In this document: positions 45,286 to 64,000 of the stretch, piece after piece
How positions within the stretch are numbered: position 1 is the stretch's first letter
Layout: the number at the start of each line of letters is the position of its first letter
Assembly: GCA_902805555.1 (NCBI GenBank)
Contig: CADCSY010000110.1
Span: 16,807 to 80,806 of the forward strand
Source: an uncultured Acidimicrobiales bacterium
GTDB taxonomy: Bacteria; Actinomycetota; Acidimicrobiia; Acidimicrobiales; CADCSY01
DNA: 64,000 nucleotides
Direction of reading: 5' to 3'
Program-made: the position numbers and the translations under genes
The notes under the pieces: generated by a model
What the model was told of the DNA's origin: nothing
The model's database searches: none
The model's input: the letters and a program-made list of their open reading frames with translations, nothing else

Positions 45286-45319
45286 GCCCGGTGCTCCCGG
45301 CCGGCCGGGCCGACGGGGC

Positions 45320-46099: not shown

Positions 46100-46101
46100 G
46101 A

Positions 46102-47019
46102 TCAGGCCTCGTTCGGGTGGGTGGGTGCGGTCGCACGGGGCACGGAACCGGTCGTCGGGGTGACGTCGAGGCCGATGTCGAGGACGGGGGCGGAGTGGGT
46201 CAGGGCCCCGACGGAGACGAGGTCGACACCGGTGGCGGCGATGGCGCCCACGGTCTCGAGGTCGACACCACCGGACACCTCGAGCAGCGGGCGGGCGGCG
46301 TCACCCCGGAGGGCGACGCAACGGCCGATCTCGTCCAGCGACATGTTGTCGAGCAGGACGATGTCGGCGCCGGCGGTGATGGCCTCCTCGAGCTGCTCGA
46401 TGCGGTCGGCCTCGACCTGCACGGTCCGTCCCGGCCAGCGGGAGCGGGCGCGGCGGACCGCCTCGGTGACCCCGAGGGCAGCGAGGTGGTTGTCCTTCAC
46501 GAGCACCCACTCCGACAGGTTGCCGCGGTGGTTGGCGCCGCCCCCGGCCCGGACCGCCGCCTTCTCGAGCGCCCGCAGCCCCGGCGTCGTCTTTCGGGTG
46601 TCCCAGATGCGGGCGCCGGGCGCGGCCGCCACGAAGCGGGCCGTGAGGGTGGCCACCCCCGAGAGGTGGCAGAGCAGGTTCAAGGCGGTGCGCTCTGCCG
46701 TCAGGATCGCCGCCAGCGGGCCGGAGACGGTGGCGATGACGTCACCGGCGGCGACGGTGCTCCCGTCGGGCAGGGCCCACTCGACGTCGACGGCGTCGTC
46801 GAGCGAGGTGAGGGCGTGGGTGGCGGCCAGCCGCCCGGCGACGACGCCGGGCGACCTGGCGACGAGGGTGGCGGTGCCGGTGGTGGCCGGGTCGAGGAGG
46901 GCGGCGGTGACGTCACCGAGCGGCTCGAGGTCCTCGGCCAGCGCCCGCGCCACGACCTCGCGGACCGCGCTGGCGGGCGGATCGACCCACGAGGCGAGCG
47001 CAGGAGGGCGGGTGGTCAC
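46102..47019 (-). CDS. nadC: nicotinate-nucleotide pyrophosphorylase
   Basis: ERTALN, DTRKTTPG, KDNH, LLDN, SGG, GALTHS. Confidence 0.95.
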   Translation of the reverse strand: MTTRPPALASWVDPPASAVREVVARALAEDLEPLGDVTAALLDPATTGTATLVARSPGVVAGRLAATHALTSLDDAVDVEWALPDGSTVAAGDVIATVSGPLAAILTAERTALNLLCHLSGVATLTARFVAAAPGARIWDTRKTTPGLRALEKAAVRAGGGANHRGNLSEWVLVKDNHLAALGVTEAVRRARSRWPGRTVQVEADRIEQLEEAITAGADIVLLDNMSLDEIGRCVALRGDAARPLLEVSGGVDLETVGAIAATGVDLVSVGALTHSAPVLDIGLDVTPTTGSVPRATAPTHPNEA

Positions 47020-47585
47020 GGGGTGATCCTGTCGGGCACGGCACCCGGGCGTCGAACTCGACCCGCAGCAGGCGCTCGACCGGCGATCGCTGCGACGGTC
47101 GCCTGCGCCAGCCGGACGAGGTCCCTCGGGTCGAGCTCGATCTCGAGGCCGCGCCGTCCTGCGCTCACGAAGACCGTCGGGTGTTCCATCGCGCCCTGGT
47201 CGACCACTGTGGGCAGCCGGCGGCGCTGGCCGAGCGGGCTGATGCCGCCGAGCACGTACCCCGTGGCCCGCTCGGCAGCGGCCGCGTCGGCCATCGCCGC
47301 CCGCTTCGAGCCCACCGAGGCCGCCAGCGCACGGAGGTCGAGCATCCGCGAGACGGGGACCACGCCGACCACGAGCTGCCCCCCACCGGTGGCGGCCACG
47401 AGCGTCTTGAGGACGCGGTCGACCCCGACCCCGAGCGCAGCCGCCGCCTCCAGGCCGTAGCCCTCGTCCTCGCCCCCTCCGCCCTCGCGGTCGGTGACGT
47501 AGCGGTGGACGGCGTGCTCGATCCCCTCCTTCCGGGCGAGGGCGACGGCCGGTGTCGCCGAGCTCGCACCCGTCCTCGCCGCCAT
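47016..47585 (-). CDS. ybaK: Cys-tRNA(Pro) deacylase
   Basis: KTL, ATGYVLGGISPLG, SAGRRG. Confidence 0.9.
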   Translation of the reverse strand: MAARTGASSATPAVALARKEGIEHAVHRYVTDREGGGGEDEGYGLEAAAALGVGVDRVLKTLVAATGGGQLVVGVVPVSRMLDLRALAASVGSKRAAMADAAAAERATGYVLGGISPLGQRRRLPTVVDQGAMEHPTVFVSAGRRGLEIELDPRDLVRLAQATVAAIAGRAPAAGRVRRPGAVPDRITP

Positions 47586-47670
47586 CGGGACCAGCCTGCC
47601 ACCCGCACCCTGCCCGCCGTCCCGCCTCGGATCGGCGACCACCGCCGGTTTCGGGGAGCCGGAGGCCCGC

Positions 47671-49275
47671 TCAGCCGCCGAGGATGACGTGGCGGTGGCG
47701 CTGCGCCTGGTCCTGGGCCGGGTGGTCGGCCCGCCAGTGGTTGCCCCGGCTCTCGGTGCGGGCCTCGGCCGCCGCCACCAGGGCCGACCCGCAGGTGACG
47801 AGGTTGGCCACCTCCCGGAGGGCGGCGCTGCCCGGGTCGACGAGGACGGCGCCCGAGGTGGCGGCGCCCACGTCGCCGATGACGACGGCTGCGCCCGCGA
47901 GCGACGGGCCCGTGCGCACCACACCCGCCCCCGTCGTCATGCCCCGCTGCAGCCGGTCGAGGAGCTGTGCAGGGTCGGCAGGTGCGGGCTGGCCCACGGC
48001 CGCCGCCGGGGGCGCGGGCAGCGCCTGCACGCCGATCTCGACGTGGCCCCCGAGGAGGGGCCGCATGGCGCCCGATGCCACCGGGCCGTCACGACCGGCC
48101 TCGATCGCCTCCACCGTCCGGGGGGCGAAGACCATCCCCTCCAGCAGGGAGTTGGAGGCGAGCCGGTTCGCGCCGTGCACCCCGGTGCAGGCCACCTCGC
48201 CGCTCGCCCACAGGCCGGGGAGGGTCGTGGCTCCGTCGAGGTCGGTCAGGACCCCGCCGGACAGGTAGTGGGCGGCGGGGGCGATCGGCAGCCAGTCTGC
48301 GGCGGGGTCGAGGCCGATGGCCCGGACGGAGGCAGCGATCGTCGGGAAGCGGAGGTCGAACCCGTCGAGGCCGGTGGCGTCGAGCCACAGGTGGTCGACG
48401 CCCTGGTCGAGCATGCGGGTCGTCATGGCCCGGCTGACCTGGTCGCGCGGGAGGAGCTCGTCGACGAAGCGCTGACCGGCCGTGTCACGCAGCAGCGCCC
48501 CGTGACCCCGCAGCGCCTCGCTCAGGAGGGGTCGCGGCATGGCGGGGTGGTGCAGCGCAGTGGGGTGGAACTGCATGAACTCGACGTCGGCGACGGCCAC
48601 CCCGGCCCGCAGCGCCATCGCCAGGCCGTCCCCCGTCGACTGGGTGGGGTTCGTCGTCACGGCGAAGAGCTGCCCTGCTCCCCCGGTGGCGAGCAGGACG
48701 TGGCGGCTCCTCACCTGCACGGCCGCCCCCGACGGGTCCAGGGCGACCACACCGGCGGCCCGGCCCCGCTCCACCAGCAGGTCGAGCGCGAACCACCCCT
48801 CGAGCACCACCGCTGCGGTCTGCTGCACGGCGGCCACCAGCGCCCGCTCGATCTCCGCCCCGGTGGCCGCACCGCCGGCGTGGACGACCCGGGCCGTGGA
48901 GTGGCCCCCCTCCCTGGCCAGCTGCAGGGTCCCGTCCCGCTCGGTGTCGAAGACCGCCCCGAGGGCGATCAGCTCGTGCACCCGCGTCGGCCCCTCGTCG
49001 ACGAGCACCCTGACGGCGTCGAGGTCGCACAGACCCGCGCCTGCCGCGAGCGTGTCGGCGAGGTGGAGGTCGGTGGAGTCCTCGTCGGCGGACAGCACGG
49101 CGGCCACGCCACCCTGGGCCCACCTCGTGGCCGACTGGTGCAGCTCCGCCTTCGTCAGCACGCCGACCCGCAGCCCGGCGACGGTCGCAGCCTGGACCGC
49201 CGCCGACAGCCCTGCCACGCCGCTGCCGAGGACGAGCAGGTCGAGCTCCCCCCCGCCGGGGGCGGGGCCGGTCAC
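47671..49275 (-). CDS. nadB: L-aspartate oxidase
   Basis: [37 protein letters not shown]. Confidence 0.95.
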
Positions 49276-49688
49276 GCCACCAGGTCCCCCGCGACGACCT
49301 CGGCGTAGCGGCGGGGATCGGCAGTGACGCGGGCGACCACGTCGGGCGGGACCGGGCGGTTGGCGGTGTCGACGTGCACCACCACCGGCTCGTACCCCTC
49401 GAGCTCGGCCGCCTCGTACTCGGCGTAGGTGATGATGATCACCCGGTCGCCGGGGCTGACGAGCCGGGCGGCCGCACCGTTCAGGCACACCTCGCCGGGC
49501 CTGCCCACGATGGCGTAGGTCTCGAAGCGGGCCCCGTTGTCGATGTCGAGCACGGCGACCTGCTCGTTCGGCAGGATGTCGGCCTGCTCCAGCAGGACCG
49601 GGTCGATCGAGACCGACCCGACGTCGTGGAGGTCGGCGCCGGTCACGGTGGCGCGATGGATCTTCGACTTCAGCATGCGGCGGCGCAC
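49272..49688 (-). CDS. panD: aspartate 1-decarboxylase
   Basis: [11 protein letters not shown]24-S25 cleavage site, [14 protein letters not shown]. Confidence 0.93.
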
Positions 49689-49797
49689 GGTTCGAGCTCC
49701 TCCCCTTCGGTGGACGCCGCGTCTGCGGTCGCCCCCACGGTCAGTGCAACCCCGCCGCCCTGCCCGCGCTTCCCGCGGTCGAACCACCCGCCCCGCT

Positions 49798-50658
49798 TCA
49801 CGGCGGTGTCGAGATCCCGACGTTGTCGATGAGCCGCGCCCGCCCGAAGCGCGCCGCCACCAGGATGCGGAGCTCACCGGCGAGGACGGCGGGGGTGCGC
49901 AGGGTGGCGGCGTCGACCACGTCGGCGGCGTCGAGGGCGGCGAGCGGCTCGGCCTCGACGATCGAGCCGACGAGGTCGGTCACGGCCGCCGGCGAGCGCT
50001 CACCGGCCGCGACCGCCGACGCACCGGACCGGAGCGCCCGCAGCAGGACCGGGGCGGCGGCACGCTCCTCCGGGGTGAGGTAGGCGTTCCGACTCGACAG
50101 GGCGAGGCCGTCCCGAGCCCGGACGACGGGGCAGCCCACCACCTCCACCGGGAAGGAGAGGTCGCCGGCCATGCGGCGCACGATGGCGAGCTGCTGGAAG
50201 TCCTTCTCCCCGAAGTAGGCCCGAGCCGCCCCGACGATGGCGAAGAGCTTCGCCACCACCGTCGCCACCCCGTCGAAGTGGGTCGGCCTGAACCGGCCGT
50301 CGAGCACCTCCGAGAGGCCGGCGACGTGCACGTTGGTGGCCACCTCGCCCGGGAACATCTCCTCCACGGGGGGCGCGAAGGCGATGGAGGCCCCGGACCG
50401 GGCGGCGGCCTCGACGTCGGCCTCGAGCGCCCTGGGGTAGGCGGCCAGATCCTCGCCAGGCCCGAACTGGAGCGGGTTGACGAAGACCGTGAGGACGACC
50501 ACGTCGCACTCGGCCGCGGCCCGTGACACCAGGCTGAGGTGCCCGTCGTGGAGCGCACCCATCGTGGGCACCAGGCCGACGAGCCGCCCGGCGCACCGCT
50601 GCTCCTGCGCCCACGTCCCCAGGTCGGCGGTGCGCTCGACCACCGGGATCCCCGCCAC
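49798..50658 (-). CDS. panC: pantoate--beta-alanine ligase
   Basis: [36 protein letters not shown]. Confidence 0.95.
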
Positions 50659-50774
50659 CCGCCCGCTCCTCCCTTGCACCGGTCCTGCCGGCCCGCGACC
50701 CGCTGTGAGCCGCGGCGGCAGCCTTGCCTCCACCGGGCCCCGGCCTCCAATCGGCCCCGGACGAGCCCGCGGGA

Positions 50775-50906
50775 GACCGGCTGCAGGCGACCGCCTCCGT
50801 AGCGACCAGCTGCGGGCGTCCGCATGCCGGCCCGCACCAGCTCGAGCGCGACCGGGTGCAGGCGTCCGCCTCCGGGGCGACCAGCTGCGGGGGTCCGCAT
50901 GCCGGC
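50775..50906. repeat. nested direct repeat: two 57-bp units (period 75), each made of two ~29-bp subunits
   Basis: GACCRGSTGCRGGSGWCCGC at 50775, 50804, 50850, 50879. Confidence 0.8.
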
Positions 50907-50939
50907 ACCCCACGGGTCGCCAGCGAGAGGCGGCGCCGG

Positions 50940-51668
50940 TCACGGTCCGGTCGTCGGAGCAGGGCCGCCGGCCCGGGGGACGAGTCGACGGGCAGCGTCG
51001 GCGAGCGCCTCGTAGGCAGGGCGCTCCGCCGGGTCGAGCGCAGCGAGGTGGCGGGCCACGGTGGCCTCGTCACCTCGCCTGACGGGGCCGGTCAGGGCAG
51101 CGGCCGGGCCTCGGGCGGCGACGTTGGCGAGCGCTCCGGCGGCGAGGGCGAGGTAGGCCTCCAGGGGGACGCCGGCGGCGGCCGCCACCCGGTCCACCTG
51201 GCCGAGCAGGGCCACCAGGTGGTTGGCGGCGATGGTGGCCGCCGCGTGGTGGAGCACCCTGTTCTCGTCGGCCACGTGGTGGGCCCTGCCTCCGAGGTCG
51301 GCGGCCAGGCGTGCGGCGAGCGGGTCGCCGGCCACGGCGAACCAGGCACCGGCGAGGTCGGTGGCCGGCCCGGGCATGCTCACGATCGGGTGGAGCGACG
51401 CCCGCCGCCGGTGCGGCGCGAGGGCGTCGAGCCCGACGGCGCCGGCCAGGTGGGCCACCACCGTCTGGTCCACGGGCTCCACGGCGCCCGCCACCGCGGG
51501 GATGGCGGCGTCCGGTGTGGCGATGAGGAGGAGGTCGACGCCGGCAGCCGCAGGCCTGAGGTCGGCGTCGCGACCGAGCACCGAGCGCAGCTCCCACCCT
51601 GCGGCGACCAGCCCGGCGCTGACGGACCGACCCGCCCGGCCGGGGCCGATGAGGCACAGTGCTGGCAT
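50940..51668 (-). CDS. Rossmann-like/DUF2520 protein (PanG-type ketopantoate reductase candidate)
   Basis: IGPGRAG, ATPD, HLAGA, HP, HHAAATIAAN, LTGPVRRGD; upstream of panC. Confidence 0.85.
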   Translation of the reverse strand: MPALCLIGPGRAGRSVSAGLVAAGWELRSVLGRDADLRPAAAGVDLLLIATPDAAIPAVAGAVEPVDQTVVAHLAGAVGLDALAPHRRRASLHPIVSMPGPATDLAGAWFAVAGDPLAARLAADLGGRAHHVADENRVLHHAAATIAANHLVALLGQVDRVAAAAGVPLEAYLALAAGALANVAARGPAAALTGPVRRGDEATVARHLAALDPAERPAYEALADAARRLVPRAGGPAPTTGP

Positions 51669-51815
51669 GGCAGCTCCCTCCCCGACGGCGTTCGAGCCCC
51701 GGGACGCTACCGACGGCGGCGCCACCGGGCCGGGTGCCGACCTTCGTCCGGCCGCCCCGTGCCGCCCGTCGTCGTGGAGCCGGGAGCGGGGACCCCGCTG
51801 GCACCGGGGCGGTCG

Positions 51816-53993
51816 TTGAGCGCGAGGGCGTCCCGCCGGGACCGGGCGGGGTCGGCCGGGGGGGGCCGGCGTCGCCGCCGGGCGGGCGCCGGCTGGCGCA
51901 GGTGGCTGCTGCGCCTCGGCCTGGTCGGCGTGGCCGGCCTCCTCCTCGTCGTCGCACTGGCGGCGGTCGCCTACCGGTCGGTCGACCTGCCGGCCGAGCC
52001 GCCTCGGGCGCAGACGAGCGTCGTCCTCGACGCCGAGGGCAACGTGCTCGCCGAGCTCTACGACGTGGAGAACCGGGTCGACGTCCGCCTCGACGAGGTC
52101 TCGCCGACGATGGTCGCAGCGGTCATCGCGGCCGAGGACCGGTCGTTCCGACGCCACAGCGGCATCAACCCGTCGAGCACCATCCGCGCCCTGTGGGTGA
52201 ACGTCCGAGGCGGCGACCTGCAGGGTGGCTCGACCATCACCCAGCAGCTCGTCAAGAACACGTACCTCACCCCCGAGCGCAGCCTCCGCCGCAAGGCGCA
52301 GGAGGCGGTGCTCGCCGTCAAGGTCGACCGCGAGCTCTCGAAGGACGCCATCCTCGAGCGCTACCTCAACACCATCTACTTCGGGCGGGGGGCGTACGGC
52401 ATCGAGGCCGCTGCCAAGGCGTACTTCGGCCCCACCGCGACCGCCCGGAGCCTGGACGTCGCCCAGTCGGCGCTGCTCGCCGGCCTCATCCGGGCCCCCG
52501 AGTCGGCCGACCCGAGCAACGACCCGGAGACGGCGAGGGCCCGCCGGGCCTCGGTGCTCCGCGCCCTGGTGGCCACCGGCGCGATCACCCAGGACGAGGC
52601 CACGATGGTGGGGGCCGCCGAGATCGTGACCGTGCCACGGGACGACGGACGAGCCACCCTGCGCGGCTCCACCGCCTACTTCGCCGACCAGGTGCGGGCG
52701 TGGGCCGTTCGGACCTTCGGCGAGGCCGCCGCCTTCGGCGGGGGGCTGCGCATCGAGACCTCGCTCGACCCGCGCATGCAGGCTGCCGCCGAGCGGGCGG
52801 TGTTCGAGACGCTGAACGAGCCTGGTGACCCCGACGGCGCGCTGGTGGCGCTCGACGAGCGAGGCGCGGTGGTGGCGATGATCGGCGGTCGCAGCTTCGA
52901 GGAGAACGAGGTCAACCTCGCCCTCGGGGCCGACGGCGGCAGCCAGGGACGCCAGCCGGGCTCGACGTTCAAGCCGTTCGTGCTGGCGGCCGCGCTCGAC
53001 GCCGGCATCCCGGTCAACCAGCGCTTCCCCGGGCCGTCCGAGATCACCGTCGACGTGGGCGGTCAGGACTACACCGTGGAGAACTTCGAGGGACAGGGCT
53101 TCGGCCAGATCGACCTGACCGCCGCCACCGCCAGCTCGGTGAACACCGTCTACGCGCAGCTCGTGGCCGCCACCGGCGCGCAGGCGGTCGCGGACGCCGC
53201 GAGGGCGGCAGGCATCACGACGCCGCTGGAACCACTCCCCTCCATCGCCCTCGGCGTCTTCGACGTCTCGCCGCTCGAGATGGCGAGCAGCTACATGACC
53301 TACGCGCGCCGGGGCAACCGGATCACGCCCTGGTACGTCGAGCGGGTGACCGAGGCCAACGGCGCCGTGCTCTACCGGGCCGAGCCCGAGCTCGAGCCGG
53401 TGGTGCCGGCGGAGCGGGCGGACCTCATGAACCACGTGCTGCGCGAGGTGATCGTCGACGGCACCGGCACCGCCGCCGACATCGGCCGGCCGGCCGCCGG
53501 GAAGACCGGCACCACCCAGGACAACACCAACGCCTGGTTCGTCGGCTACACGCCTCGGCTGGGGGCCGCCGTCTGGATGGGCTACGGCGCAGAAGGCCGG
53601 CGGGAGATGAAGGACGTCCGTGGCCGGCGGGTCACGGGCGGTGGGCTCCCCGCCCAGATCTGGCAGCGCTTCATGGCAGCCGCCGTCGAGCCGCTCGACA
53701 CGGGGAGCTTCGTGGCGCCTCGGGACGAGGACCTCGACCCGACGACGTCCGCCCCCCCGACCACCGCCCGCCGGGCCACCCCGACGACCTCGACGACCTC
53801 GACCTCGGCGCCGCCCACCACCGCCGACACGACGGAGGCACCGGAGACCACGACCACGTCGCCGTCCACCACCGCCGCCCCCCAGCCCACGACGACCGAG
53901 GCGCCCCCCACCCCGGAGGCGCCCACGACGAGCCAGGCCCCGGCGGCGCCCGAGGCGGCACCGCCGCCGGCTGGCGACGGCGGTGGCGGCTAG
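51816..53993 (+). CDS. class A penicillin-binding protein (transglycosylase/transpeptidase), start uncertain
   Basis: AAEDRSF, GGSTITQQ, RKAQE, STFK, SVN, KTGT; Thr/Pro-rich tail. Confidence 0.92.
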   Translation: MSARASRRDRAGSAGGGRRRRRAGAGWRRWLLRLGLVGVAGLLLVVALAAVAYRSVDLPAEPPRAQTSVVLDAEGNVLAELYDVENRVDVRLDEVSPTMVAAVIAAEDRSFRRHSGINPSSTIRALWVNVRGGDLQGGSTITQQLVKNTYLTPERSLRRKAQEAVLAVKVDRELSKDAILERYLNTIYFGRGAYGIEAAAKAYFGPTATARSLDVAQSALLAGLIRAPESADPSNDPETARARRASVLRALVATGAITQDEATMVGAAEIVTVPRDDGRATLRGSTAYFADQVRAWAVRTFGEAAAFGGGLRIETSLDPRMQAAAERAVFETLNEPGDPDGALVALDERGAVVAMIGGRSFEENEVNLALGADGGSQGRQPGSTFKPFVLAAALDAGIPVNQRFPGPSEITVDVGGQDYTVENFEGQGFGQIDLTAATASSVNTVYAQLVAATGAQAVADAARAAGITTPLEPLPSIALGVFDVSPLEMASSYMTYARRGNRITPWYVERVTEANGAVLYRAEPELEPVVPAERADLMNHVLREVIVDGTGTAADIGRPAAGKTGTTQDNTNAWFVGYTPRLGAAVWMGYGAEGRREMKDVRGRRVTGGGLPAQIWQRFMAAAVEPLDTGSFVAPRDEDLDPTTSAPPTTARRATPTTSTTSTSAPPTTADTTEAPETTTTSPSTTAAPQPTTTEAPPTPEAPTTSQAPAAPEAAPPPAGDGGGG

Positions 53994-54469
53994 GCGGGCG
54001 GGATCGGCGCCGGTCGCAACAGGTCCATCGCAGTGCGCACCACGTGGCCCTCGGCCGCGTCGAGGGCGGAGGCCGGCACGAGGGAGGGCGCGAGCTCGGC
54101 GAGCGGTGCGAGCACGAAGCGCCGGTCCCACAGCCGGGGGTGGGGGACGACGAGGTCGTCCTCGGCGACGACGAGGTCGCCCACGAGGAGCACGTCGACG
54201 TCGAGCGTCCGGGGGCCCCACCGCAGGGCCCGCTCCCGCCCTGCTGCCTGCTCGAGCCGATGGCACTCGTCCAGGAGGGCTCGGGGCGTGCGCGCCGTCT
54301 CGAGCTCGACGACGGCGTTCAGGTACGGGCCCTGACCGGTCGGGCCGCCGACCGGGTCGGACTCGTAGACGCCGGAGACGGCGACCACCTCGTCGAGCGA
54401 GGCGACCGCCGTGCGCAGGTGGGCCTCCCGGTCACCGAGGTTCGACCCGAGCCCGAGGTAGGCCCGCAC
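53990..54469 (-). CDS. folK: 2-amino-4-hydroxy-6-hydroxymethyldihydropteridine diphosphokinase
   Basis: LGLGSNLG, YLNAV, WGPRTLDVD, PHP. Confidence 0.95.
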   Translation of the reverse strand: MRAYLGLGSNLGDREAHLRTAVASLDEVVAVSGVYESDPVGGPTGQGPYLNAVVELETARTPRALLDECHRLEQAAGRERALRWGPRTLDVDVLLVGDLVVAEDDLVVPHPRLWDRRFVLAPLAELAPSLVPASALDAAEGHVVRTAMDLLRPAPIPPA

Positions 54470-54471
54470 GC

Positions 54472-54864
54472 TCAGGCGACCCCGCTCGGACCGTCGGCGC
54501 GGCGGGTGAGGCGCACCCCAGACGTCGCGAGGTCGTGGGGGACGGGGGGCCGCAGCTTGCGCAACCAGACGGTGACGGCGTCGATGCGGGGATCGACGGC
54601 CAGGACGGCGTCCGCGAGGCGAGCGCCGAGGTGCTCGAGGAGGACGGCGTGGCCGCTCGTGACCACGTCCGACACCACGGCGCAGAGGGCGCCGTAGTCG
54701 ACGGTGTCACCCAGGTCGTCCGTCGATCCGGGGGCAGCGAGGTCGAGCTCGACGTCGAGGTCGACCTCGAGCGGCTGCGGCCGGTCGAGCTCCTCGGGGA
54801 GGGCGCCGCAGCGGCCGAGGAGCCGCAGGCCCCGCAGCTCGATGGCGTCGGGGCCGGCGCTCAG
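54472..54864 (-). CDS. folB: dihydroneopterin aldolase (probable CTG start)
   Basis: IELRGL..G..G.LPEE...Q, DDLGDTVDY, LLEHL, KLRPP; full domain needs a start upstream of the first canonical codon (54678). Confidence 0.88.
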   Translation of the reverse strand: MSAGPDAIELRGLRLLGRCGALPEELDRPQPLEVDLDVELDLAAPGSTDDLGDTVDYGALCAVVSDVVTSGHAVLLEHLGARLADAVLAVDPRIDAVTVWLRKLRPPVPHDLATSGVRLTRRADGPSGVA

Positions 54865-55373
54865 GCTGCGGCCTCGTCGGCGAGGACCCGGGCCAGGGCG
54901 ACCAGCTCACGTCCGGACGGGCCGAGCTGGCGCGAGAGCAGCTGCTCGCTCATGGCGATGGCCCGGGTCGACTCGGGCACCAGGTTCGAGAAGACGAGGT
55001 AGCCGGCGATCGTCCCGTGGAGGCGGTCACCGACCTCGTCCTGGTGGACGAGCAGCTTGGCACCGTCCGCCAGCTGCCGGCGCATGTCCGGGTACAGCGT
55101 CGACAACACCGACCTCGGCTCGTCGTGGAGGCCGAACGGCAGGTGCTGGTACGGCACCTGGAGCTCCCCGTAGGCGTGGAGGTTGTGGGGTGACGCCAGG
55201 AGGCTCACGATCGACGTGAACCCCTGCTGGCGGATCCAGATGATCTCCTCCTGCCGCCGCACGCGGCGGTGGCTGTCGCCGTAGCCACCGGGCCGTTCGG
55301 AGACGGCCAGGCGGTCCTTGATCACCCAGGTGAAGTTGCGGGGGACGATCCCCTGTGCCCACTTGCCCTTCAC
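54861..55373 (-). CDS. PTP/dual-specificity-phosphatase-fold protein lacking the catalytic Cys
   Basis: GAGGAGG RBS; NFTWVI..LAVSERPG, GFTSIVSL, LLVHQDEVGDR in place of VHCx5R. Confidence 0.75.
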   Translation of the reverse strand: MKGKWAQGIVPRNFTWVIKDRLAVSERPGGYGDSHRRVRRQEEIIWIRQQGFTSIVSLLASPHNLHAYGELQVPYQHLPFGLHDEPRSVLSTLYPDMRRQLADGAKLLVHQDEVGDRLHGTIAGYLVFSNLVPESTRAIAMSEQLLSRQLGPSGRELVALARVLADEAAA

Positions 55374-55437
55374 GAGCCTCCTCCTCGGCCCGCAGCGAGG
55401 CTGCCCGGGCTCCGCTCGCGACCGGGCTCCGTCCGCG

Positions 55438-56208
55438 TCATGCCGCCACCTCGTCCCCGAGCAGGCGGGCGGCGGCGACCGTGGCGGCGACGTCGTGCAC
55501 CCGCACCATCCCCGCCCCCTGGGCCAGCGCCCACACCGCCGTGGCCACCGAGGCCTCGAGGCGGTCCTCGACGCCGGCGCCACCGGTCAGGCGACCGAGG
55601 AAGCCCTTCCGGCTCGTCCCCACGAGGACGGGCAGCCCCGTGGCGACGAGCTCGTCGAGCCGGGCGAGCAGCTCGAGGTTGTGGCCGTCGTCCTTGCCGA
55701 ACCCGATCCCGGGGTCGATCCACACCTCACCCACCCCGGCCTCGATCCCCCGAGCAGCCCGCTCGACCAGGTGCTCGCGCACCTCGGACACCACGTCGTC
55801 GTAGCGGGGGTCCTCCTGCATCGTCGCCGGCTGCCCCCGCATGTGCATCGCGACCCATCCCACGCCGGCGCTGGCAGCGACCCCGAACAGCGAGGCGCTG
55901 ACGTCGTTGACGAGCGTGGCCCCGGCCTCGACCGCGGCCTCGGCCACCGCTGCGTTGCGGGTGTCGACCGAGACCCGCACGTGCGGGGCGAGCGCGGCCA
56001 CCACCGGCACGACCCGTCGCCGCTCCTCCTCGACATCGACCTCGGCTGCGCCGGGACGGGTCGACTCGCCTCCCACGTCGATCACGTCTGCGCCCTCGGC
56101 CACGAGCCCGATGCCGTGCTCGACGGCCGCGTCGGGGTCGAGGAAGCGCCCGCCGTCGGAGAACGAGTCGGGGGTGGCGTTCACGATCCCCATCACCAGC
56201 CCGCGCAC
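55438..56208 (-). CDS. folP: dihydropteroate synthase
   Basis: NATPDSFSDGG, GGESTRPG, DPGIGFGK, SRK, RVHDV. Confidence 0.96.
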   Translation of the reverse strand: MRGLVMGIVNATPDSFSDGGRFLDPDAAVEHGIGLVAEGADVIDVGGESTRPGAAEVDVEEERRRVVPVVAALAPHVRVSVDTRNAAVAEAAVEAGATLVNDVSASLFGVAASAGVGWVAMHMRGQPATMQEDPRYDDVVSEVREHLVERAARGIEAGVGEVWIDPGIGFGKDDGHNLELLARLDELVATGLPVLVGTSRKGFLGRLTGGAGVEDRLEASVATAVWALAQGAGMVRVHDVAATVAAARLLGDEVAA

Positions 56209-56257
56209 CGTGCGATCGTACGCGCCCGCAGCGGTGGACCCGACGGGGCCGATCGGT

Positions 56258-56866
56258 TCAACGAGGCGCGTGGATGAACGCCATGGCCTCGGCCCGGGTG
56301 GCCGGGTTCGAGCGGAACAGGCCCCGCACGGCCGAGGTGACGGTCGTCGAGCCCGGCTTCCGGACGCCGCGCATCGACATGCAGAGGTGCTCCGCCTCGA
56401 TCACGACGAGCACGCCCCTCGGCTGCAGCGTCGCCTCGAGCGCCTCCGCGATCTCCGTCGTGAGGCGCTCCTGGACCTGTGGCCGCTTTGCGAAGCCGTC
56501 GACCAGGCGGGCCAGCTTCGAGATGCCGGTGATGCGCCCGTCGTCGCCGGGGATGTAGGCGACGTGGGCGCTCCCGTGGAACGGGAGCAGGTGGTGCTCG
56601 CAGCTGGAGTAGCACGCGATGTCGCGGACCATCACCATCTCGTCGTGGTCGGCGGCGAACGTCACCTCGAGGTGGTCGCCGGGCCGCTGGCGCACGCCGG
56701 CGAAGATCTCGGCGTACATGCGGGCCACGCGGGCGGGGGTCGACCTGAGGCCGTCCCGCTCAGGATCGTCGCCGACGGCGAGGAGGATCTCCCGCACGGC
56801 GGCCTCGATGCGTCCGTGGTCCACCCGGCCGAGGTGGGGGTCGGTCGGCTCGGGGAGGCCGGTCAC
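56258..56866 (-). CDS. folE: GTP cyclohydrolase I
   Basis: [31 protein letters not shown]. Confidence 0.96.
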
Positions 56867-58848
56867 TCCGGCTGGACGGTCCTCGTGAAGCGCAGCCGGC
56901 GGCGGGCGGGGGTCGCCGGAGGAGCAGGGGGCTCGGGCACCGGCGCCGCCGACGCGGCGGTCACCCCCGCACCGGCCCGTCCCTGGGGCTCGGCGGGGTC
57001 GACGGGGACCGCAGGCTCGGGGACGGTGCCCCCGACCCGCCACACGGGGAGGTGCCCGAAGATCTCGAGCAGCGCCGGCGTGTCGAGGGTCTCCCGCTCG
57101 ACGAGGGACTCGGCCAGGTGGTCGAGCGTCGCCCGGTGGGTGGTGAGGATCTTCTCGGCCTCCTGGTGGGCCGTGTCGATCAGCACCCGCACCTCGGCGT
57201 CGATGGTGGCCGTGACCTCGTCCGAGTAGAAGGTGGAGCTGCCCGACTCGCGTCCCAGGAAGGGGTCGGTCTGGCGGGTCCGCATCTGCTGGGGCCCGAT
57301 GGCGTCGGTCATGCCGAACTCGGTGACCATCGAGCGGGCGATCGTGGTGGCCCGCTCGATGTCGTTCTGGGCGCCGGTGGTGGGGTCGCCGAACACGAGC
57401 TCCTCCGCCGTGCGGCCGCCGAGCAGCATCGCGAGCTCGTCCCGCAGCTCGGAGCGGGACTGCATGTGCTTGTCCTCGGTGGGCAGGGCGAGCGTCCAGC
57501 CGAGGGCACGTCCCCTGGCGATGATCGAGACCTTGTGGATCGGGTCGGTGTTCGGCAGGACGTGGCCGACGAGGGCGTGCCCGGCCTCGTGGTAGGCGAT
57601 GATCTGCTTCTCCCGGTCGTTCATGACCCGGCTCTTGCGCTCGGGCCCGGCCATCACCCGGTCGATCGCCTCCTCCATCTCCGACATGCCGATGGTGGTG
57701 CTCCCCCGCCTGGCGGTCAGCAGCGCGGCCTCGTTCATGAGGTTGGCGAGGTCGGCGCCGGTGAAGCCCGGGGTCCGGCGGGCGAGGACGTCGATCTCGA
57801 TGTCGGGGCCGAGCGGCTTGCCCTTGGCGTGGACGTTGAGGATGGCGCGACGGCCTTCGAGGTCGGGGCGGTCGACCACGATCTGGCGGTCGAAGCGTCC
57901 GGGGCGCAGCAGCGCCGGGTCGAGGATGTCGGGCCGGTTGGTCGCTGCGATGAGGATCACGCCGGTCCTGGCGTCGAAGCCGTCCATCTCCACGAGGAGC
58001 TGGTTGAGCGTCTGCTCCCGCTCGTCGTGGCCGCCGCCCATCCCCGAGCCCCGGTGGCGGCCGACGGCGTCGATCTCGTCCACGAAGATGATGGCCGGGC
58101 TGTTCGCCTTCGCCTGCTCGAAGAGGTCCCGCACCCGGCTGGCGCCCACGCCGACGAACATCTCGACGAAGTCCGACCCCGAGATCGAGAAGAACGGCAC
58201 GCCCGCCTCACCGGCCACGGCGCGGGCGAGGAGGGTCTTGCCCGTCCCCGGGGGCCCGAACAGCAGGACCCCCTTGGGGATCTTGGCCCCGATGGCCTGG
58301 AACTTGGCCGGGCTCTCCAGGAACTCCTTGATCTCCTGCAGCTCCTCGACCGCCTCGTCGGCACCGGCGACGTCGGCGAAGGTGACCTGGGGCTGGTCCT
58401 TGCTCACCCGCTTGGCCTTGGCCTTGCCGAACTGCATGACCTTGCTCCCGCCGCCCTGCGCCGAGTTGAGGAAGAAGAGGAAGACGCCGATGATGAGCAG
58501 GAACGGGAGGAAGTTGAACAGCAGCGAGAGCCAGAACGAGCCCTCCTGCTGCGTCGTCTCCTGCGGCACGTCGGCGCTGCGCAGCAGCTCGCTCACCCGG
58601 TCGTACGACTCGGTGCCGATCTCGGTCTCGTAGGCCGTCCCGTCGGTGAGCTCGCCGGTGACGGCGGAGGTCGACTCCCCGACGGCGATCTCGGCGTCGG
58701 CGACCTGGCCGGCCTCGACGCGGTCGACGAACTCGTCGTAGCGCAGCGCCTCTCGATCCTCACCGCCGCCGAGGCTCTGGCTGGCGACGAGCAGCACGAC
58801 CAGGGCCACCACGACCCAGAAGACGACGCTGCGGCGGAGCTTGTGCAC
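56863..58848 (-). CDS. ftsH: ATP-dependent zinc metalloprotease FtsH
   Basis: two TMs, [20 protein letters not shown]. Confidence 0.98.
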
Positions 58849-58967
58849 GACGGGTCACTCCGATGGCGGTCGGCGGTAGGTCGGGCCAGGCTACCGACGA
58901 CATCGTGGTCACGCCCCGCGCCGGAGGCGCCAGGCGCGGGAGCGGCCCGGCGCGCCGGTCGCTGCCC

Positions 58968-59504
58968 TCAGCCGGCGCCCTCCCAGACGCAGATGTAGGG
59001 GAGGTTCCGGTGCTTCTCGGCGATGTCGAGGCCGTAGCCGACGACGAACACGTTGGGCACCCGGAAGCCGGTGTAGCGGAGGTCGGGCACCTCGCTCTCC
59101 TCCCGCACGAGCAGGGCGCACACCTCGAGGCTGGCCGGGTTGCGGGCCTCGAGGTTGCGGCGGAGGAACGAGAGGGTGAGGCCGCTGTCGACGATGTCCT
59201 CCACCAGGAGCACGTGCCGGTCGGTGAGGTCGAGGTCGAGGTCCTTCACGATCCGCACCACCCCGCTCGTCTTCGTGGCGCTGCCGTAGGACGACACCGC
59301 CATGAAGTCGAACTCGACCTCGAGGTCGATGGCGCGGGACAGGTCGGCGAGGAAGAGGAAGGCCCCCTTCAGCACGCAGATGAGCAGCGGCGGGTCGTCC
59401 CGGTAGTCGGCGGTGATCTGCGCACCGAGCTCGGCGATGCGACGCTGCAGCACGTCGGCGGGGATGAGGACCTCGCCGAGCTCGGGGGCGGGGGTCCTGA
59501 CCAC
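58968..59504 (-). CDS. hpt: hypoxanthine phosphoribosyltransferase
   Basis: VLKGA, SSYG, VEDIVDSGLT, VGYGLD. Confidence 0.95.
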   Translation of the reverse strand: MVRTPAPELGEVLIPADVLQRRIAELGAQITADYRDDPPLLICVLKGAFLFLADLSRAIDLEVEFDFMAVSSYGSATKTSGVVRIVKDLDLDLTDRHVLLVEDIVDSGLTLSFLRRNLEARNPASLEVCALLVREESEVPDLRYTGFRVPNVFVVGYGLDIAEKHRNLPYICVWEGAG

Positions 59505-59513
59505 CGCGGGAAC

Positions 59514-60416
59514 CTAGCCCTCGTGGGGGCCCTCCGGGCCGGCCCGCTCCAGGCGCAGCCGCCCGCCGGTCCGTGCCACCCGCAGGCCCCCACCCACGTC
59601 CGCCGCCACCCGCTCGCCCCGGGCCACGACCAGCACCCGCTCGAGCGTGGCGGCGTCGGGGGGGTAGGGCGGGTCGGCCTCGGTGAGCCAGCGCCGGAGC
59701 GCCCGCCGGGCCAGGGGCACGGGCGCGGCCGCCAGCGCCCCGGCGTCGAGGGGGTCGAGCCTCGCCGCCTGGGCGTCGAGCAGGTCCGCTTCCTCACCGG
59801 CCAGCGTGGCGGTCCGGGTGAGCAGGGGCACCACGTCCCGACCCGCCACCTCGTCCAGGAGGGGCAGCACCTCGTGTCGGACGCGGTTGCGCCGGAAGGC
59901 CGGGTCGACGTTGCTCGGGTCGACGACCGGGTCGAGCCCGGAGACGAGGCAGACGGCGTGGGTCTCGGCGCGACGGAGGGCGAGCAGGGGCTTGCAGGAG
60001 CCGGGTCGCATGCCGCGGAGCCCGTCGGGACCGGCGCCCCTGAGCAGGTGCAGCAGGAGCGTCTCGGCCTGGTCGTCGGCGGTGTGGCCGGTCATGGCGC
60101 CCGACGGCAGCACGTCGCGCCTCGCCGCCCTCGCCCGTGCCTCGAGGTTCGGCCCCGGCGCCACGTCCACCCGCCTCGCCTCGAACCGGGCGCCGAGCCC
60201 CGCCGCAGCGTCCCGCACCACGTCGGCCTCGGCAGCGGACCCGGACCGCAGGCCGTGGTCGACGTGCACCGCCGTGACGTCGAGTCCCGCCGCCACCGCC
60301 AGGACGAGCAGGGCCAGCGAGTCGGCCCCGCCCGACACCGCCGCGGTGACCACCGTCCCCGGCGGGGGGAAGCGGCACCGTGACAGGAGCGCAGCCGCTG
60401 GCGACGTCGAGCGCAC
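59514..60416 (-). CDS. tilS: tRNA(Ile)-lysidine synthase (start uncertain)
   Basis: SGGADS, DHGLR, GHTADDQAET, DPSN, RNRVR. Confidence 0.93.
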   Translation of the reverse strand: MRSTSPAAALLSRCRFPPPGTVVTAAVSGGADSLALLVLAVAAGLDVTAVHVDHGLRSGSAAEADVVRDAAAGLGARFEARRVDVAPGPNLEARARAARRDVLPSGAMTGHTADDQAETLLLHLLRGAGPDGLRGMRPGSCKPLLALRRAETHAVCLVSGLDPVVDPSNVDPAFRRNRVRHEVLPLLDEVAGRDVVPLLTRTATLAGEEADLLDAQAARLDPLDAGALAAAPVPLARRALRRWLTEADPPYPPDAATLERVLVVARGERVAADVGGGLRVARTGGRLRLERAGPEGPHEG

Positions 60417-60513
60417 CGCTACCGGGCGCAGGGGACGTGGCGGAGGTGGCGGTCGCGCCACCGAGCCGCGGAGCTGGCGCAGGCTGGCCGCCGCGCGCCA
60501 CCACGCCGGCGCC

Positions 60514-61602
60514 TCACACCCCCGGCACCCCAGCCGGCGCCCGCGCCGCCGACGCCCGGTCGATCCACTGCGCCGGGTCGCGGATCTCGGCGATGCTCGG
60601 CAGCCACTCGGGCCCGACCCACGCCTGCTCGAGCAGCTCCATCCCGCCGGCCGCCTCGACCGCCTCGATGAACGCCTCGCCCTGGGCGTACTGGTTGATC
60701 TTCGCCTCGAGCCCGATGAGCTGCTGGAGGAGCTTGGCCGGCCCCGAGCGCTGCGCCCGCCGCGCCCGCAGGACGTTGCTGAAGCGCTCTGCCGAGGGGA
60801 TGAGGTGGGCGCCGGCGCGGTCCATCGTGACGTCGCCGTGACCCTCGAGCAGGCTCATCATCCCGCCGATCCGGCCGAGGGTCTCGCGCTGGTCGTCGGA
60901 GGCGAGGAGCGCCACCAGCCCCCCCTCCTCGAGGGGGTTCCGTCCGGCCCGGACCTCGTCGGCCGCCTTCCGCAGGGCGACGAGGAAGCGCTTGGGGTCG
61001 GTGTCGACGCCGCTCAGGCTCTCGTCCACCAGCCCGAGGAAGTGGCCGCGGAGCCACGGGATCCCGGTGAACTGGGCCCGGTGGGTGACCTCGTGCAGCG
61101 CCAGCCACAGCCGGAACTCCCGAGGCGGGAACCCGTAGCGCTTCTCCAGCGCGAGGACGTTCGGCCCGACGTAGTAGACGAGGTCCTGCTCGTCGGCGTC
61201 CTCCTCCTCCACGATGAGGAGGTCGTACTGGCCGAGGACACGGGTGGACATCCAGCCGAGCATCGCCCCCACCTCGGCCCCGGCGACGTTCCGCGTGACG
61301 ACGGCACCCGGTCCGCGCTCGGGCACCTTCTCCGCCAGCTTCTCGGTGAGCGGCCGCAGGAGCCGCCGGAACGACGCCAGGTTCGCCTGCACCCAGCCGG
61401 CGCGGTCGGTGACGCGCGCCCGGGCGGGCCCCGCTGCCGGCACGAGCCCCGTCGTCTTCGTGACGAGCGCCTCCGCCTCGGCGGTGAGCTCGTCGAAGTC
61501 GGCCGCCAGCGAGTCGGCGTGGTACGAGTCGGCGAAGGGGTCCCGCCCCCCGACCCGGGCCGCGACCTTCGCAGCGGTGTCCCAGGCGATCGGCTCAGAC
61601 AT
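60514..61602 (-). CDS. zinc-dependent metalloprotease (DUF2342 family)
   Basis: RVLGQYD, HEVTH, MSLLEGH, QYAQGEAF; usual position upstream of tilS. Confidence 0.88.
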   Translation of the reverse strand: MSEPIAWDTAAKVAARVGGRDPFADSYHADSLAADFDELTAEAEALVTKTTGLVPAAGPARARVTDRAGWVQANLASFRRLLRPLTEKLAEKVPERGPGAVVTRNVAGAEVGAMLGWMSTRVLGQYDLLIVEEEDADEQDLVYYVGPNVLALEKRYGFPPREFRLWLALHEVTHRAQFTGIPWLRGHFLGLVDESLSGVDTDPKRFLVALRKAADEVRAGRNPLEEGGLVALLASDDQRETLGRIGGMMSLLEGHGDVTMDRAGAHLIPSAERFSNVLRARRAQRSGPAKLLQQLIGLEAKINQYAQGEAFIEAVEAAGGMELLEQAWVGPEWLPSIAEIRDPAQWIDRASAARAPAGVPGV

Positions 61603-61638
61603 GTGCCCTCCGTCCAGCTGCTTCGTCCGACCGGTCCG

Positions 61639-61797
61639 CTACCGCCGCGGGTACTTCAGCGACTCGACCTTCTTGAGGTAGCCGACGATCGTCGCGAGGA
61701 TCGCCAGCAGCGCCCCGGCGACGAGGGGCACGGCGATCCAGTAGTGCCACACCTTGGCAGCGAGCGTGGGGTCGAGGTCGGCGAGGACGGCGTCCAT
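61639..61797 (-). CDS. 52-aa single-pass membrane protein (absent from ORF track)
   Basis: manual translation MDAVLADLDPTLAAKVWHYWIAVPLVAGALLAILATIVGYLKKVESLKYPRR*; TACGCT 6 nt before ATG; nearly all third positions G/C. Confidence 0.75.
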   Translation of the reverse strand: MDAVLADLDPTLAAKVWHYWIAVPLVAGALLAILATIVGYLKKVESLKYPRR

Positions 61798-61878
61798 GTC
61801 CCGAGCGTACGCCCGGCCGGACGCCGCCGTGTCCGCCCGGCGACCGGGCCGGAGCCGCAGGTCGGGCCCGGAGGACCC

Positions 61879-62073
61879 TCAGGCGGCGTCGATCTTCCGC
61901 CCCCTGGTGCGGGGGACGACCATCGGTGCGTGGAGGCTGCACCACGCACCGTCGTTGTAGATCGACAGGCGCGTGCCGCACCCGTCCTCTCCGCACACCC
62001 GCCCCGCCTCGGCCTTCGGCGACGTCGCCTCCGTGCTCGTGAAGCGGTGCCCGCTGACGCTCGGTCCGTCCAT
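61879..62073 (-). CDS. small Cys/His-rich (C-x4-C-x12-C-x2-H) protein
   Basis: RVCGEDGCGTRLSIYNDGAWCSLH; ECF promoter immediately upstream. Confidence 0.75.
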   Translation of the reverse strand: MDGPSVSGHRFTSTEATSPKAEAGRVCGEDGCGTRLSIYNDGAWCSLHAPMVVPRTRGRKIDAA

Positions 62074-62081
62074 GGACCGTG

Positions 62082-62108
62082 CAACCGGCCGACGCCGGTC
62101 CGCATTCC
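62082..62108 (-). promoter_or_regulatory. SigH/SigR-type promoter GGAAT-N18-GTTG
   Basis: minus strand GGAAT at 62108-62104, GTT at 62085-62083, 18-nt spacer. Confidence 0.8.
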
Positions 62109-62131
62109 GGTTTTACAACTAAAAACTTCGC

Positions 62132-62389
62132 TCAGTCCGAGGTGGCCGGATCCTTCGCCAGGAGCATGGCGATGCGCTCCTTCAGCGCCTCGGGCACCGT
62201 CTCCCGGCAGTGGTGCGAGATCACCACCCGCAGCTCGGCCTCGAACTCGAACGCCTCCAGGCACGAGTGGCACCCGTCGAGGTGCCCGCTGATCGCCGCA
62301 CGCCGGGCCTCGGTCAGCTCGCCGTCGAGGAACGTGTACAGCTCGCGGATGGCGTCCTGGCAGTCCTCCACTGGCACGTCACTGCTCAA
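62132..62389 (-). CDS. rshA: zinc-binding anti-sigma factor (RshA/RsrA)
   Basis: LYTFLDGEL, HxxxCxxC (HLDGCHSC), VPEALKERI; follows ECF sigma. Confidence 0.9.
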   Translation of the reverse strand: MSSDVPVEDCQDAIRELYTFLDGELTEARRAAISGHLDGCHSCLEAFEFEAELRVVISHHCRETVPEALKERIAMLLAKDPATSD

Positions 62390-62399
62390 CGTGGGCCCG

Positions 62400-63095
62400 T
62401 CACGATTTCTTCCGTCCCCCTGCTCGAGCCGACGGAGGCGTCCGTCCGGCCTGAGGCTGCGGGACCCCGTCGTCCCGGTCGGCCCGCCCGTCCTGCTGGG
62501 GCGAACCGTCCGGCTCGTCGGGGTCGTCCGGGTCGCCGGTGAGGAGGCCCTGGTTCGTGGCGAACTCGAAGAGCGCCTTCTGGAGGTTCTTGCGCCCCCG
62601 GTGCAGGCGGCTCATCACCGTGCCGATCGGGATCTCGAGGATCGAGGCGATCTCCTTGTAGGAGAACCCCTCGACGTCAGCCAGCAGCACCGCCATGCGG
62701 AACTGCTCCGGCAGCGCGTCGACGGCCGCCTTCACCTCGGCCTCCGAGAACAGGTCCATCAGCTCGTCCTCGGCGCTGCGACCCGCACGCGCCTCCTCCA
62801 GCCCGCCGAGGCGGCGGTAGAGGTAGAAGTCCTCGACGTCGTCGAGGTCGGTCTCGTCGGGCCGGCGCTTCGCCGCGCGGTACCGGTTGATGAAGGTGTT
62901 CGTGAGGATCCGGTAGAGCCAGGCCTTCAGGTTCGTGCCCTGCTCGAAGGAGCCGAAGCCGCGGTAGGCCTTGAGGTACGTCTCCTGGACGAGGTCCTCG
63001 GCGTCGGCCGGGTTGCGGGTCATGCGCAGGGCAGCCGAGTAGAGCGACGGCATGAGGTCCATCGCCTGCTCGGTGAACGTCGCCTGATCAGCCAT
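62400..63095 (-). CDS. sigH: ECF sigma factor SigH/SigR
   Basis: [52 protein letters not shown]. Confidence 0.92.
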
Positions 63096-63191
63096 CCGCC
63101 CCCCTTTCTACCGGCCCCTCCCGGCGGAGGTCGCAGCCACGTCGCGACCTGCCCGCGGGTCGGCGAGGCTGGTGCGCGCTGCGATGCGAGC

Positions 63192-64000
63192 TCAGGCCGG
63201 CGGCTCCCCACAGCGGCGGGGATCGCCCCGGTAGACCGCCACCTCCGAGCCGGGACGGGGGAGCGCCGCCACCCGCCGGTACAGCTCCTCCGCGCTCGAC
63301 GACGAAGCTCGAGCTCTTTCGACCGCACGGACACGAGCGTCGCGCTCGGCCAGCGGCAGGGCGCTCGCCCGGCCCACCAGCTCGAGATCGTGGTCGTCGG
63401 CAGACGCTGAGACCTCCTCGTTCACCGTGACGAGCAGGGTGGCAGCTCCGCCGGTGCAGCCGACGCGGTGCCGGCCGTACTTGGCGTCCTGCTCCGGGCC
63501 CACCTCGACCCGTCGTCCCGCCCGCTCGAGCTGGAGCGCCAGGCCGTCGGCGTACGAGTTGGCGCTGAGCGAACCCTCCGCCTGGAGGTGCACGACATCC
63601 ACCTCGTCGTGGAGGTTGGCGCGGACGTCAGCCGCCAGCTCCCCGACGATCCGTGACTCGTCGCCCGTCGGCGTGCCGGCCCGTGCGGCCGCCACCGAGT
63701 TCACGACGAGGAGCACCACGCCGACGACGGCCGACCAGAAGGCGAGTGGTCGGTCCACCCCGGGCCTCACCTCGCCCACCCACCTGGCCGCCGTGGCACC
63801 GACGAGCAGCCACGCCATGAGCCCCACGACCCACGTCCACACGGTCAGGTACGGCAGGAGATCACCGACGACACGGGACACCGACACCACAGCCGTGACA
63901 GCCAGGGCGGCGACCAGCGCCGCGAGCCACGTGATGTCTCGCCAACCACGACGCTTGGCGAGCAGGCCGGAGAGGACTGCGGGGAGCACTGCGACAGGGA
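63192..64000 (-). CDS. membrane protein, 3' part; 5' end outside window
   Basis: several hydrophobic helices followed by a soluble domain; open frame to window edge. Confidence 0.6.
   Translation of the reverse strand, partial: PVAVLPAVLSGLLAKRRGWRDITWLAALVAALAVTAVVSVSRVVGDLLPYLTVWTWVVGLMAWLLVGATAARWVGEVRPGVDRPLAFWSAVVGVVLLVVNSVAAARAGTPTGDESRIVGELAADVRANLHDEVDVVHLQAEGSLSANSYADGLALQLERAGRRVEVGPEQDAKYGRHRVGCTGGAATLLVTVNEEVSASADDHDLELVGRASALPLAERDARVRAVERARASSSSAEELYRRVAALPRPGSEVAVYRGDPRRCGEPPA

Follow-up and report, generated by a model that had tools for sequence, protein, structure and literature searches.

What is a small gene with a predicted phosphatase fold doing inside a folate operon? 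In the window analysed here (the whole stretch of 64,000 nucleotides), gene X lies in the order folE-folP-X-folB-folK (Table 1). The initial annotation took X for a candidate catalyst of the missing folate dephosphorylation step or for a pseudo-enzyme regulator. The known dihydroneopterin triphosphate pyrophosphatases, FolQ/NudB (Nudix) and FolQ2 (HD), are described in the accessible part of PMC1971073, according to which the dephosphorylation step is unassigned in most bacteria.

Table 1 Gene X, its sequence motifs and the neighbouring fol genes in the window
Feature	Coordinates	Strand	Description or evidence
Gene X	54861..55373	-	170-aa DUSP-fold (predicted) protein without catalytic Cys
Shine-Dalgarno-like GAGGAGGAGG of X	55377..55386	-	sequence
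Family signature R27-PGG-x4-H35-R36-x-V-R39-R40-x-E42-E43-x2-W46	55236..55295	-	six-residue insertion versus PDB 25xa
Vestigial P-loop H110-QDEVGD-R117	55023..55046	-	acidic; without Cys; without Gly at the H-C-x-x-G position; Leu replacing Ser/Thr
folK, HPPK	53990..54469	-	PF01288 2e-39
folB, dihydroneopterin aldolase, downstream of X, probable CTG start	54472..54864	-	PF02152, TIGR00525
folP, dihydropteroate synthase, upstream neighbour of X	55438..56208	-	PF00809 4e-79; TIGR01496 over cut-off
folE, GTP cyclohydrolase I, provisional start	56258..56887	-	PF01227 3e-76

The reading frame of X (55373 to 54861, minus strand) runs from a GTG start to a TGA stop and encodes 170 residues. This frame and its operon context are as first annotated, with the neighbours now identified by Pfam and NCBIfam, and the strong ribosome-binding site noted for X is borne out by the Shine-Dalgarno-like GAGGAGGAGG, which is separated from the start codon by 3 nt. 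The overlap proposed between the X stop and the folB start holds if folB begins at CTG but not for the usual start codons, as the folB frame, from the preceding stop up to the FolB domain, holds no ATG, GTG or TTG. The start of folB is probably a non-canonical CTG (54864-54862) that overlaps the X stop in CTGA at 54861-54864 and sits 7 nt past GAGG. The same CTGA junction is present in a relative, L062 (82% identical), and an RNA-library contig spans the X/folB junction with zero differences. RNA-library contigs match parts of X exactly; these come from one study with small word shares and leave transcription unproven. X overlaps folB or lies at most 5 nt from it at 62 of 115 loci. An Rfam scan of window positions 44000-64000 gave no match. 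The usual gene cluster is broken in the window by a penicillin-binding-protein-like gene (recognized by eye), which lies on the opposite strand (plus; about 51770-53993) between folK and the DUF2520 gene; L062 also has such a gene nearby. Upstream of the cluster (62132-63095, minus strand) lies a pair that we take to be a SigH-like ECF sigma factor and an RshA-like anti-sigma factor.

The X protein (P0001) has no family match in Pfam or NCBIfam, as might be expected of a chance frame or a decaying pseudogene. This reading is refuted, and its probability is negligible, by 4,694 homologues in the database, a confident predicted fold, pN far below pS in the comparison described below, and the distribution of the gene. 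One X match each was found in 295 of 301 Acidimicrobiia-class genomes, a tally that takes in the window's own genome (G000) and one flagged as unpublished (G245). Among the genomes at least 90% complete the count is 257 of 260, and among those of about 1 Mb it is 33 of 36. The record titles of relatives name Acidimicrobiia or Acidimicrobiales. Beyond the class, 2 of 231 genomes of the phylum were matched when only 14 candidates were scored in each; both are members of family f65.

An AlphaFold2 model of X (pLDDT 91, pTM 0.87) was compared with known structures. Foldseek ranked VHZ/DUSP23 first (E 2.4e-7, TM 0.71/0.79), and VIA-align matched the model to DUSP23 at Z 19.0, with an rmsd of 2.1 over 146 residues; KAP, Tk-PTP and PTEN came next. 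PDB 25xa, a DUSP-family protein from bacteria, was found with the single X sequence (E 1.2e-5) and with a 40-sequence profile (8e-12), which also found DUSP3 (6e-5). The nearest named Atlas clusters were PTP-SAK/DSPc (0.92-0.93). These matches support a DUSP23-type phosphatase fold for the model, and thus the PTP/DSP fold suspected at the outset was recovered. No Nudix or HD Pfam match was found among 40 X-family members. X would share its single-domain fold with small atypical DUSPs of the DUSP23/VHZ type (PDB 2img, 4erc), 25xa, archaeal Tk-PTP (5z5a) and SsoPTP, and it resembles these proteins in the P-x-N-F-x-W-V...L-A start at the N-terminus, the His that opens the P-loop and the strand-loop-helix layout. 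The window's genome also encodes two PTP-SAK-type proteins of the ordinary kind (L194, G000:C54; L198, G000:C85), whose HCWGGIGRT loop is intact; canonical DUSPs therefore coexist with X.

The active site departs from this pattern. A working DUSP requires H-C-x-x-G-x-x-R-S/T and a general-acid Asp, as stated in the accessible text of PMC13577060, and the P-loop of 25xa, HCRAGYGRT, is the motif given there for a Ca. Chlorohelix protein. X, unlike the DUSP23/VHZ-type, bacterial and archaeal phosphatases named above, has no Cys, no Gly of the H-C-x-x-G motif, no Ser/Thr after the Arg and no aligned general-acid Asp; its loop is acidic, and the six residues HRRVRR are inserted before helix 1. The HQDEVGDR sequence pointed out in the initial annotation is confirmed as residues 110-117, and because it aligns with HCRAGYGR of 25xa we regard it as a vestigial P-loop. 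The motif is present with the spacing then emphasized, but this spacing alone is uninformative: H-x6-R occurs in 49% of 10,000 shuffles of the X protein, and the assignment thus rests on the alignments and the fold. In an alignment (A3) of 114 diverse X homologues, Cys occupies the nucleophile position in two and the full canonical motif in none. At least three acids are found among residues 111-117 in 108 of the 114; D116 is kept in 94%, and R117 in only 75%. At position 111, the nucleophile site, Q stands in 58 of 140 sequences, with G in 33, H in 17 and R in 15; Gln is therefore not a substitute nucleophile. The loss of Cys claimed earlier thus stands, with Gln in its place in the window's X, but Gln is not the rule of the family. 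The P-loop Gly and Ser/Thr are absent throughout, since in all 140 sequences position 114 holds V/L/F/I and position 118 L/V/I/M. The general-acid Asp of 25xa aligns with L82 of X in an unconserved column, where the commonest residue is Pro (28% of the 114). An Asp two positions past this column is kept in 68%; a shifted general acid is therefore just conceivable. Judged from these alignments, the active site of X is rebuilt throughout, beyond a single Cys-to-Gln swap. X thus combines a predicted DUSP fold, a lost nucleophile and a conserved protein, one of the two marks of a pseudophosphatase; the other, action by binding a partner without catalysis, is proposed for X below. Of the pseudo-enzyme regulator suggested at first, the pseudo-enzyme half has become likelier, but not a regulatory role in folate synthesis.

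The Arg-rich HRRVRR patch of the initial annotation is present (residues 35-40, 55271-55254) and forms the insertion at the start of helix 1. Its R36, R39 and R40 are invariant in all 114 homologues, as are G8, P11, W16, G29, G30, E43, W46, N64 and H110. The invariant or nearly invariant polar residues are H35 (98%), E42 (99%), E43 (100%), N64 (100%), Y68 (99%), H110 (100%) and D116 (94%). The two copies inspected from genomes of about 1 Mb have H35 replaced by P or S and R27 by C. The model has low confidence at residues 31-40 (pLDDT 63), as a loop that becomes ordered only when it binds would be expected to show. The X core has a net charge near zero, with a median of +1. Some homologues (L044, 1501-2892; L122; L139; P0264; P0267) carry Lys/Ala-rich, histone-H1-like tails of 100-300 residues; those of L044, L122 and L139 are HC2-like below the cut-off, and other homologues have acidic Ala/Pro tails. 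Of 28 selected long homologues, 16 have a basic tail, 11 an acidic one and 1 a mixed one. Being of either charge, the C-terminal tails give at most a faint hint of nucleic-acid binding by X.

A sister subfamily of X was found in family f65, whose homologues are labelled Thermoleophilia; it is carried by 48 of 61 f65 genomes. It is homologous to X over the full length (hhalign 99.8%, E 5e-29) and retains ERPG and HR..R..E..W, with R27 in 120, R36 in 114 and R40 in 119 of 120 sequences. N64 is replaced by A/G/C. The sister P-loop, HCDRxxEW, keeps Cys in 94 of 120 and shows Trp where the Arg would stand in 115 of 120. As the X loop is acidic without Cys and the sister loop has Trp for Arg, the two branches have each lost a working P-loop in a different way while keeping the Arg insertion. 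No fol gene was found within 1.5 kb of the sister gene at any of 32 loci, and folP-folB-folK was contiguous without X in 5 of 5 f65 genomes. At sister loci (L151-L182), the adjoining genes encode a thioesterase, a GT4 glycosyltransferase and a glycosyl hydrolase, along with an ECF sigma factor that carries zf-HC2. In genome G422 the sister copy is split over two frames.

Synteny was examined at 140 X loci with flanks of 1.5-6 kb, a set in which some genomes occur twice and related genomes are not independent. The linkage of X to fol genes across Acidimicrobiia, which the initial annotation had suggested checking, was found: folP is directly upstream in 119 of 140, folB directly downstream in 109 and both in 104. 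A fol gene is near X at 126 loci and none is near at 14. The long cluster to which these genes belong reads tilS-hpt-ftsH-folE-folP-X-folB-folK-DUF2520-panC-panD-nadB-nadC-coaX. In a FastTree phylogeny (122 rows), the deep branches have X adjacent to fol genes; the adjacency label changes six times, and at least three changes are forced by starred branches. After loss of its neighbours, X remains as tilS-X, ftsH-X-panC or tilS-X-DUF2520. In 12 genomes where X is not linked to fol genes, folE was found elsewhere in six and folK elsewhere in nine; most unlinked cases are therefore relocations and were not counted as losses. Database fusions of X with FolP, TilS, FolB/FolK or FtsH domains (P0242-P0349) are almost all single-member records that join X to whichever gene adjoins it, or to the whole cluster, and many cover only part of X. 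We rejected them as evidence of partnership; they are probable frameshift artefacts and could mislead fusion analyses. The position of X between folP and folB is best read as an old synteny within the tilS-hpt-ftsH-fol-pan-nad-coaX cluster.

This linkage is the main argument for a role on pterin phosphates, in which X would dephosphorylate dihydroneopterin tri- or monophosphate, or sense pterin phosphates for FolB. The placement exactly between folP and folB extends to the deepest branches and to a 1 Mb genome, X appears from the CTGA overlap to be translationally coupled to folB in the window, and the step itself lacks an assigned enzyme in most bacteria, as noted above for PMC1971073. The distribution of the fol genes argues against it. 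HPPK was found in 286 of 301 genomes, and 12 of the 15 genomes without HPPK have X. Nine genomes with X (G008, G042, G074, G090, G102, G106, G193, G292 and G298; 97-100% complete, G292 as a single contig) gave no match to folE, folE2, folB, folK or folP. Three others with X and no folK found were left out of this fol-less set: in G011 the other three fol genes lie at a contig end, and G068 and G152 are 88% and 80% complete. The nine, lacking FolE and FolE2, cannot make dihydroneopterin triphosphate via either known cyclohydrolase. All nine keep X next to tilS with its signature intact. Among them, pN of X is far below pS, and it is lower than pN of tilS in 36 of 36 pairs; by this sequence measure X is under purifying selection, tighter than tilS. 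They form one family and one clade, and their lack of fol genes may thus go back to a single loss event. Their PF00809 hits were rejected as DHPS: scans of three small hits identified methyl-THF:corrinoid methyltransferases, and the long frames agree with MetH in size only.

The converse case is given by G046 (single contig, 99% complete) and G259 (98%), in which the operon reads tilS-hpt-folE-folP-folB-folK with no room for X; no X match was found anywhere in either genome. Each has a second folP-like gene (G046:C1:1356861-1357607 and G259:C87:42750-43493; 42-46% identity). The nine genomes that keep X under selection where its supposed substrate cannot be made, the two intact operons without X, and the sister subfamily unlinked from fol genes make dephosphorylation or sensing of pterin phosphates very improbable, and they speak also against the scaffold for fol enzymes or phosphate-sensing device that had been offered as an alternative. 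The 11 Nudix proteins of the window's genome are ordinary candidates for the step. X resembles FolQ/NudB and FolQ2 in its location inside the fol gene cluster, but its fold is unrelated, and its occurrence in genomes does not follow that of FolE, FolB, FolK or FolP. X is probably not the missing folate dephosphorylation step.

A role in the use of folate rather than its synthesis was also considered, in which the Arg patch would bind or protect polyglutamylated folates. FolC is kept in 4 of 4 fol-less genomes tested, together with folate-dependent methyltransferases; these genomes thus still use folate, and such a role is possible there. It would explain both the ancestral linkage of X to fol genes and the retention of X in genomes that depend on folate salvage. 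Nevertheless, G046 has FolC and a full fol operon without X, X stays with tilS, ftsH or panC when fol genes relocate, and the neighbours of the sister gene are the thioesterase, sigma factor, glycosyltransferase and glycosyl hydrolase genes listed above. We consider this folate-use role improbable. In family f3, FolE was found in 0 of 12 genomes tested, and FolE2 only in G014. Three f3 genomes have a separate folB and folK with a very divergent folP-like gene of 33-34% identity (G014:C1:2325387-2326956, G024:C1:2524386-2527469 and G066:C1:1883299-1886407), possibly a pterin-salvage module. Another cluster, shared by fol-less f3 genomes (L205-L208), encodes a methyl-THF:corrinoid methyltransferase together with an MtgC-like corrinoid protein and an AcsV/RamA-like activator.

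Partners of X were sought by co-loss, comparing whole G088 and G000 with 1.40 of the 2.16 Mb of G046. In this comparison 196 of 540 shared genes had no match in G046, a proportion in line with the fraction of G046 left uncovered. Filtering by synteny reduced these to 12 genes, X itself among them, and two were tested. An HD-domain dGTPase-like gene was rejected as it is present in both X-less genomes, and a MerR-type gene was rejected since it is missing from G046 yet present in G259. The MerR-type regulator (L238:14108-14548 in G088) is found in G000, G088, G008, G042, G292 and G259, and this query had no match in G046. No partner of X emerged from the comparison of G088 and G000 with these 1.40 Mb. 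Ser/Thr kinases were present in all five genomes tested for them, whether X-bearing or X-less, and were rejected as discriminating partners.

We propose, with about an even chance of being right, that X is a non-catalytic pseudophosphatase whose ligand is phosphorylated or polyanionic and whose housekeeping role lies outside pterin synthesis. This proposal draws on sequence conservation and the predicted model. The conserved Asp116 and neighbouring acids would close the old phosphate cradle, and a new basic patch of R12, R27, H35, R36, R39 and R40 would provide the binding surface, held in place by E42, E43, W46, N64 and Y68. The ligand would be, in order of preference, a nucleic acid or polyphosphate, a phosphoprotein, or a small molecule of the nucleotide type. 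A housekeeping role is suggested by the single match in nearly all genomes of the class, including those of about 1 Mb, and a place outside pterin synthesis by the nine fol-less keepers and the two fol operons without X.

The nearly invariant H35, E42, E43, N64, Y68, H110 and D116 could instead form a new catalytic site. X would then be an enzyme on the PTP scaffold, acting on a phosphorylated non-pterin metabolite by Cys-independent chemistry with His, Glu, Asp and Arg, perhaps metal-assisted. Such an enzyme is a tentative possibility. It would account for the conservation of active-site-type polar residues and the strong constraint on X, and it would suit a gene within a cofactor cluster (HPT, folate, CoA and NAD). 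It fits poorly with the replacement of H35 and R27 in the two copies from small genomes and with the loss of N64 in the sister subfamily; H110 is the ordinary His of the DUSP motif and may be structural, and the acids of the P-loop make it less likely that phosphate still binds there. In a bolder form, X would found a family of Cys-independent PTP-fold enzymes, with HRRVRR, E42/E43, N64, Y68 and H110 as the new site and the old P-loop closed by acids. Its substrate would be a phosphorylated cofactor or a nucleic-acid end in a process that nearly all Acidimicrobiia need, and the Thermoleophilia-labelled copies, most of which still have Cys, would represent an intermediate stage. We regard this version as doubtful.

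The pseudophosphatase proposal has precedents in eukaryotes. STYX, MK-STYX and the N-terminal DSP domain of Cdc14 have a DUSP fold without the nucleophile that is reused for binding, and STYX retains most of its pocket after a single Cys substitution. In X, by comparison, the loop is wholly remodelled, and the protein is bacterial, class-wide and single-copy. No paper on the X family, and no described bacterial DUSP-fold pseudophosphatase family, was found in a search mostly outside subscription journals. A class-marker study (PMC5962788), in its accessible part, used only A. ferrooxidans proteins as queries. The DUSP fold and the pseudophosphatase principle are known already; the X family is undescribed as a variant of them.

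X lacks an annotation, occurs as a single copy almost throughout an abundant bacterial class, and persists even in genomes of 1 Mb. It is therefore a good marker and a tractable target in the search for a new function. Where X sits in the fol operon is no ground for annotating it as the missing pterin phosphatase, a negative but useful result in practice. If X proves to be catalytic, it would represent new chemistry on the PTP fold.
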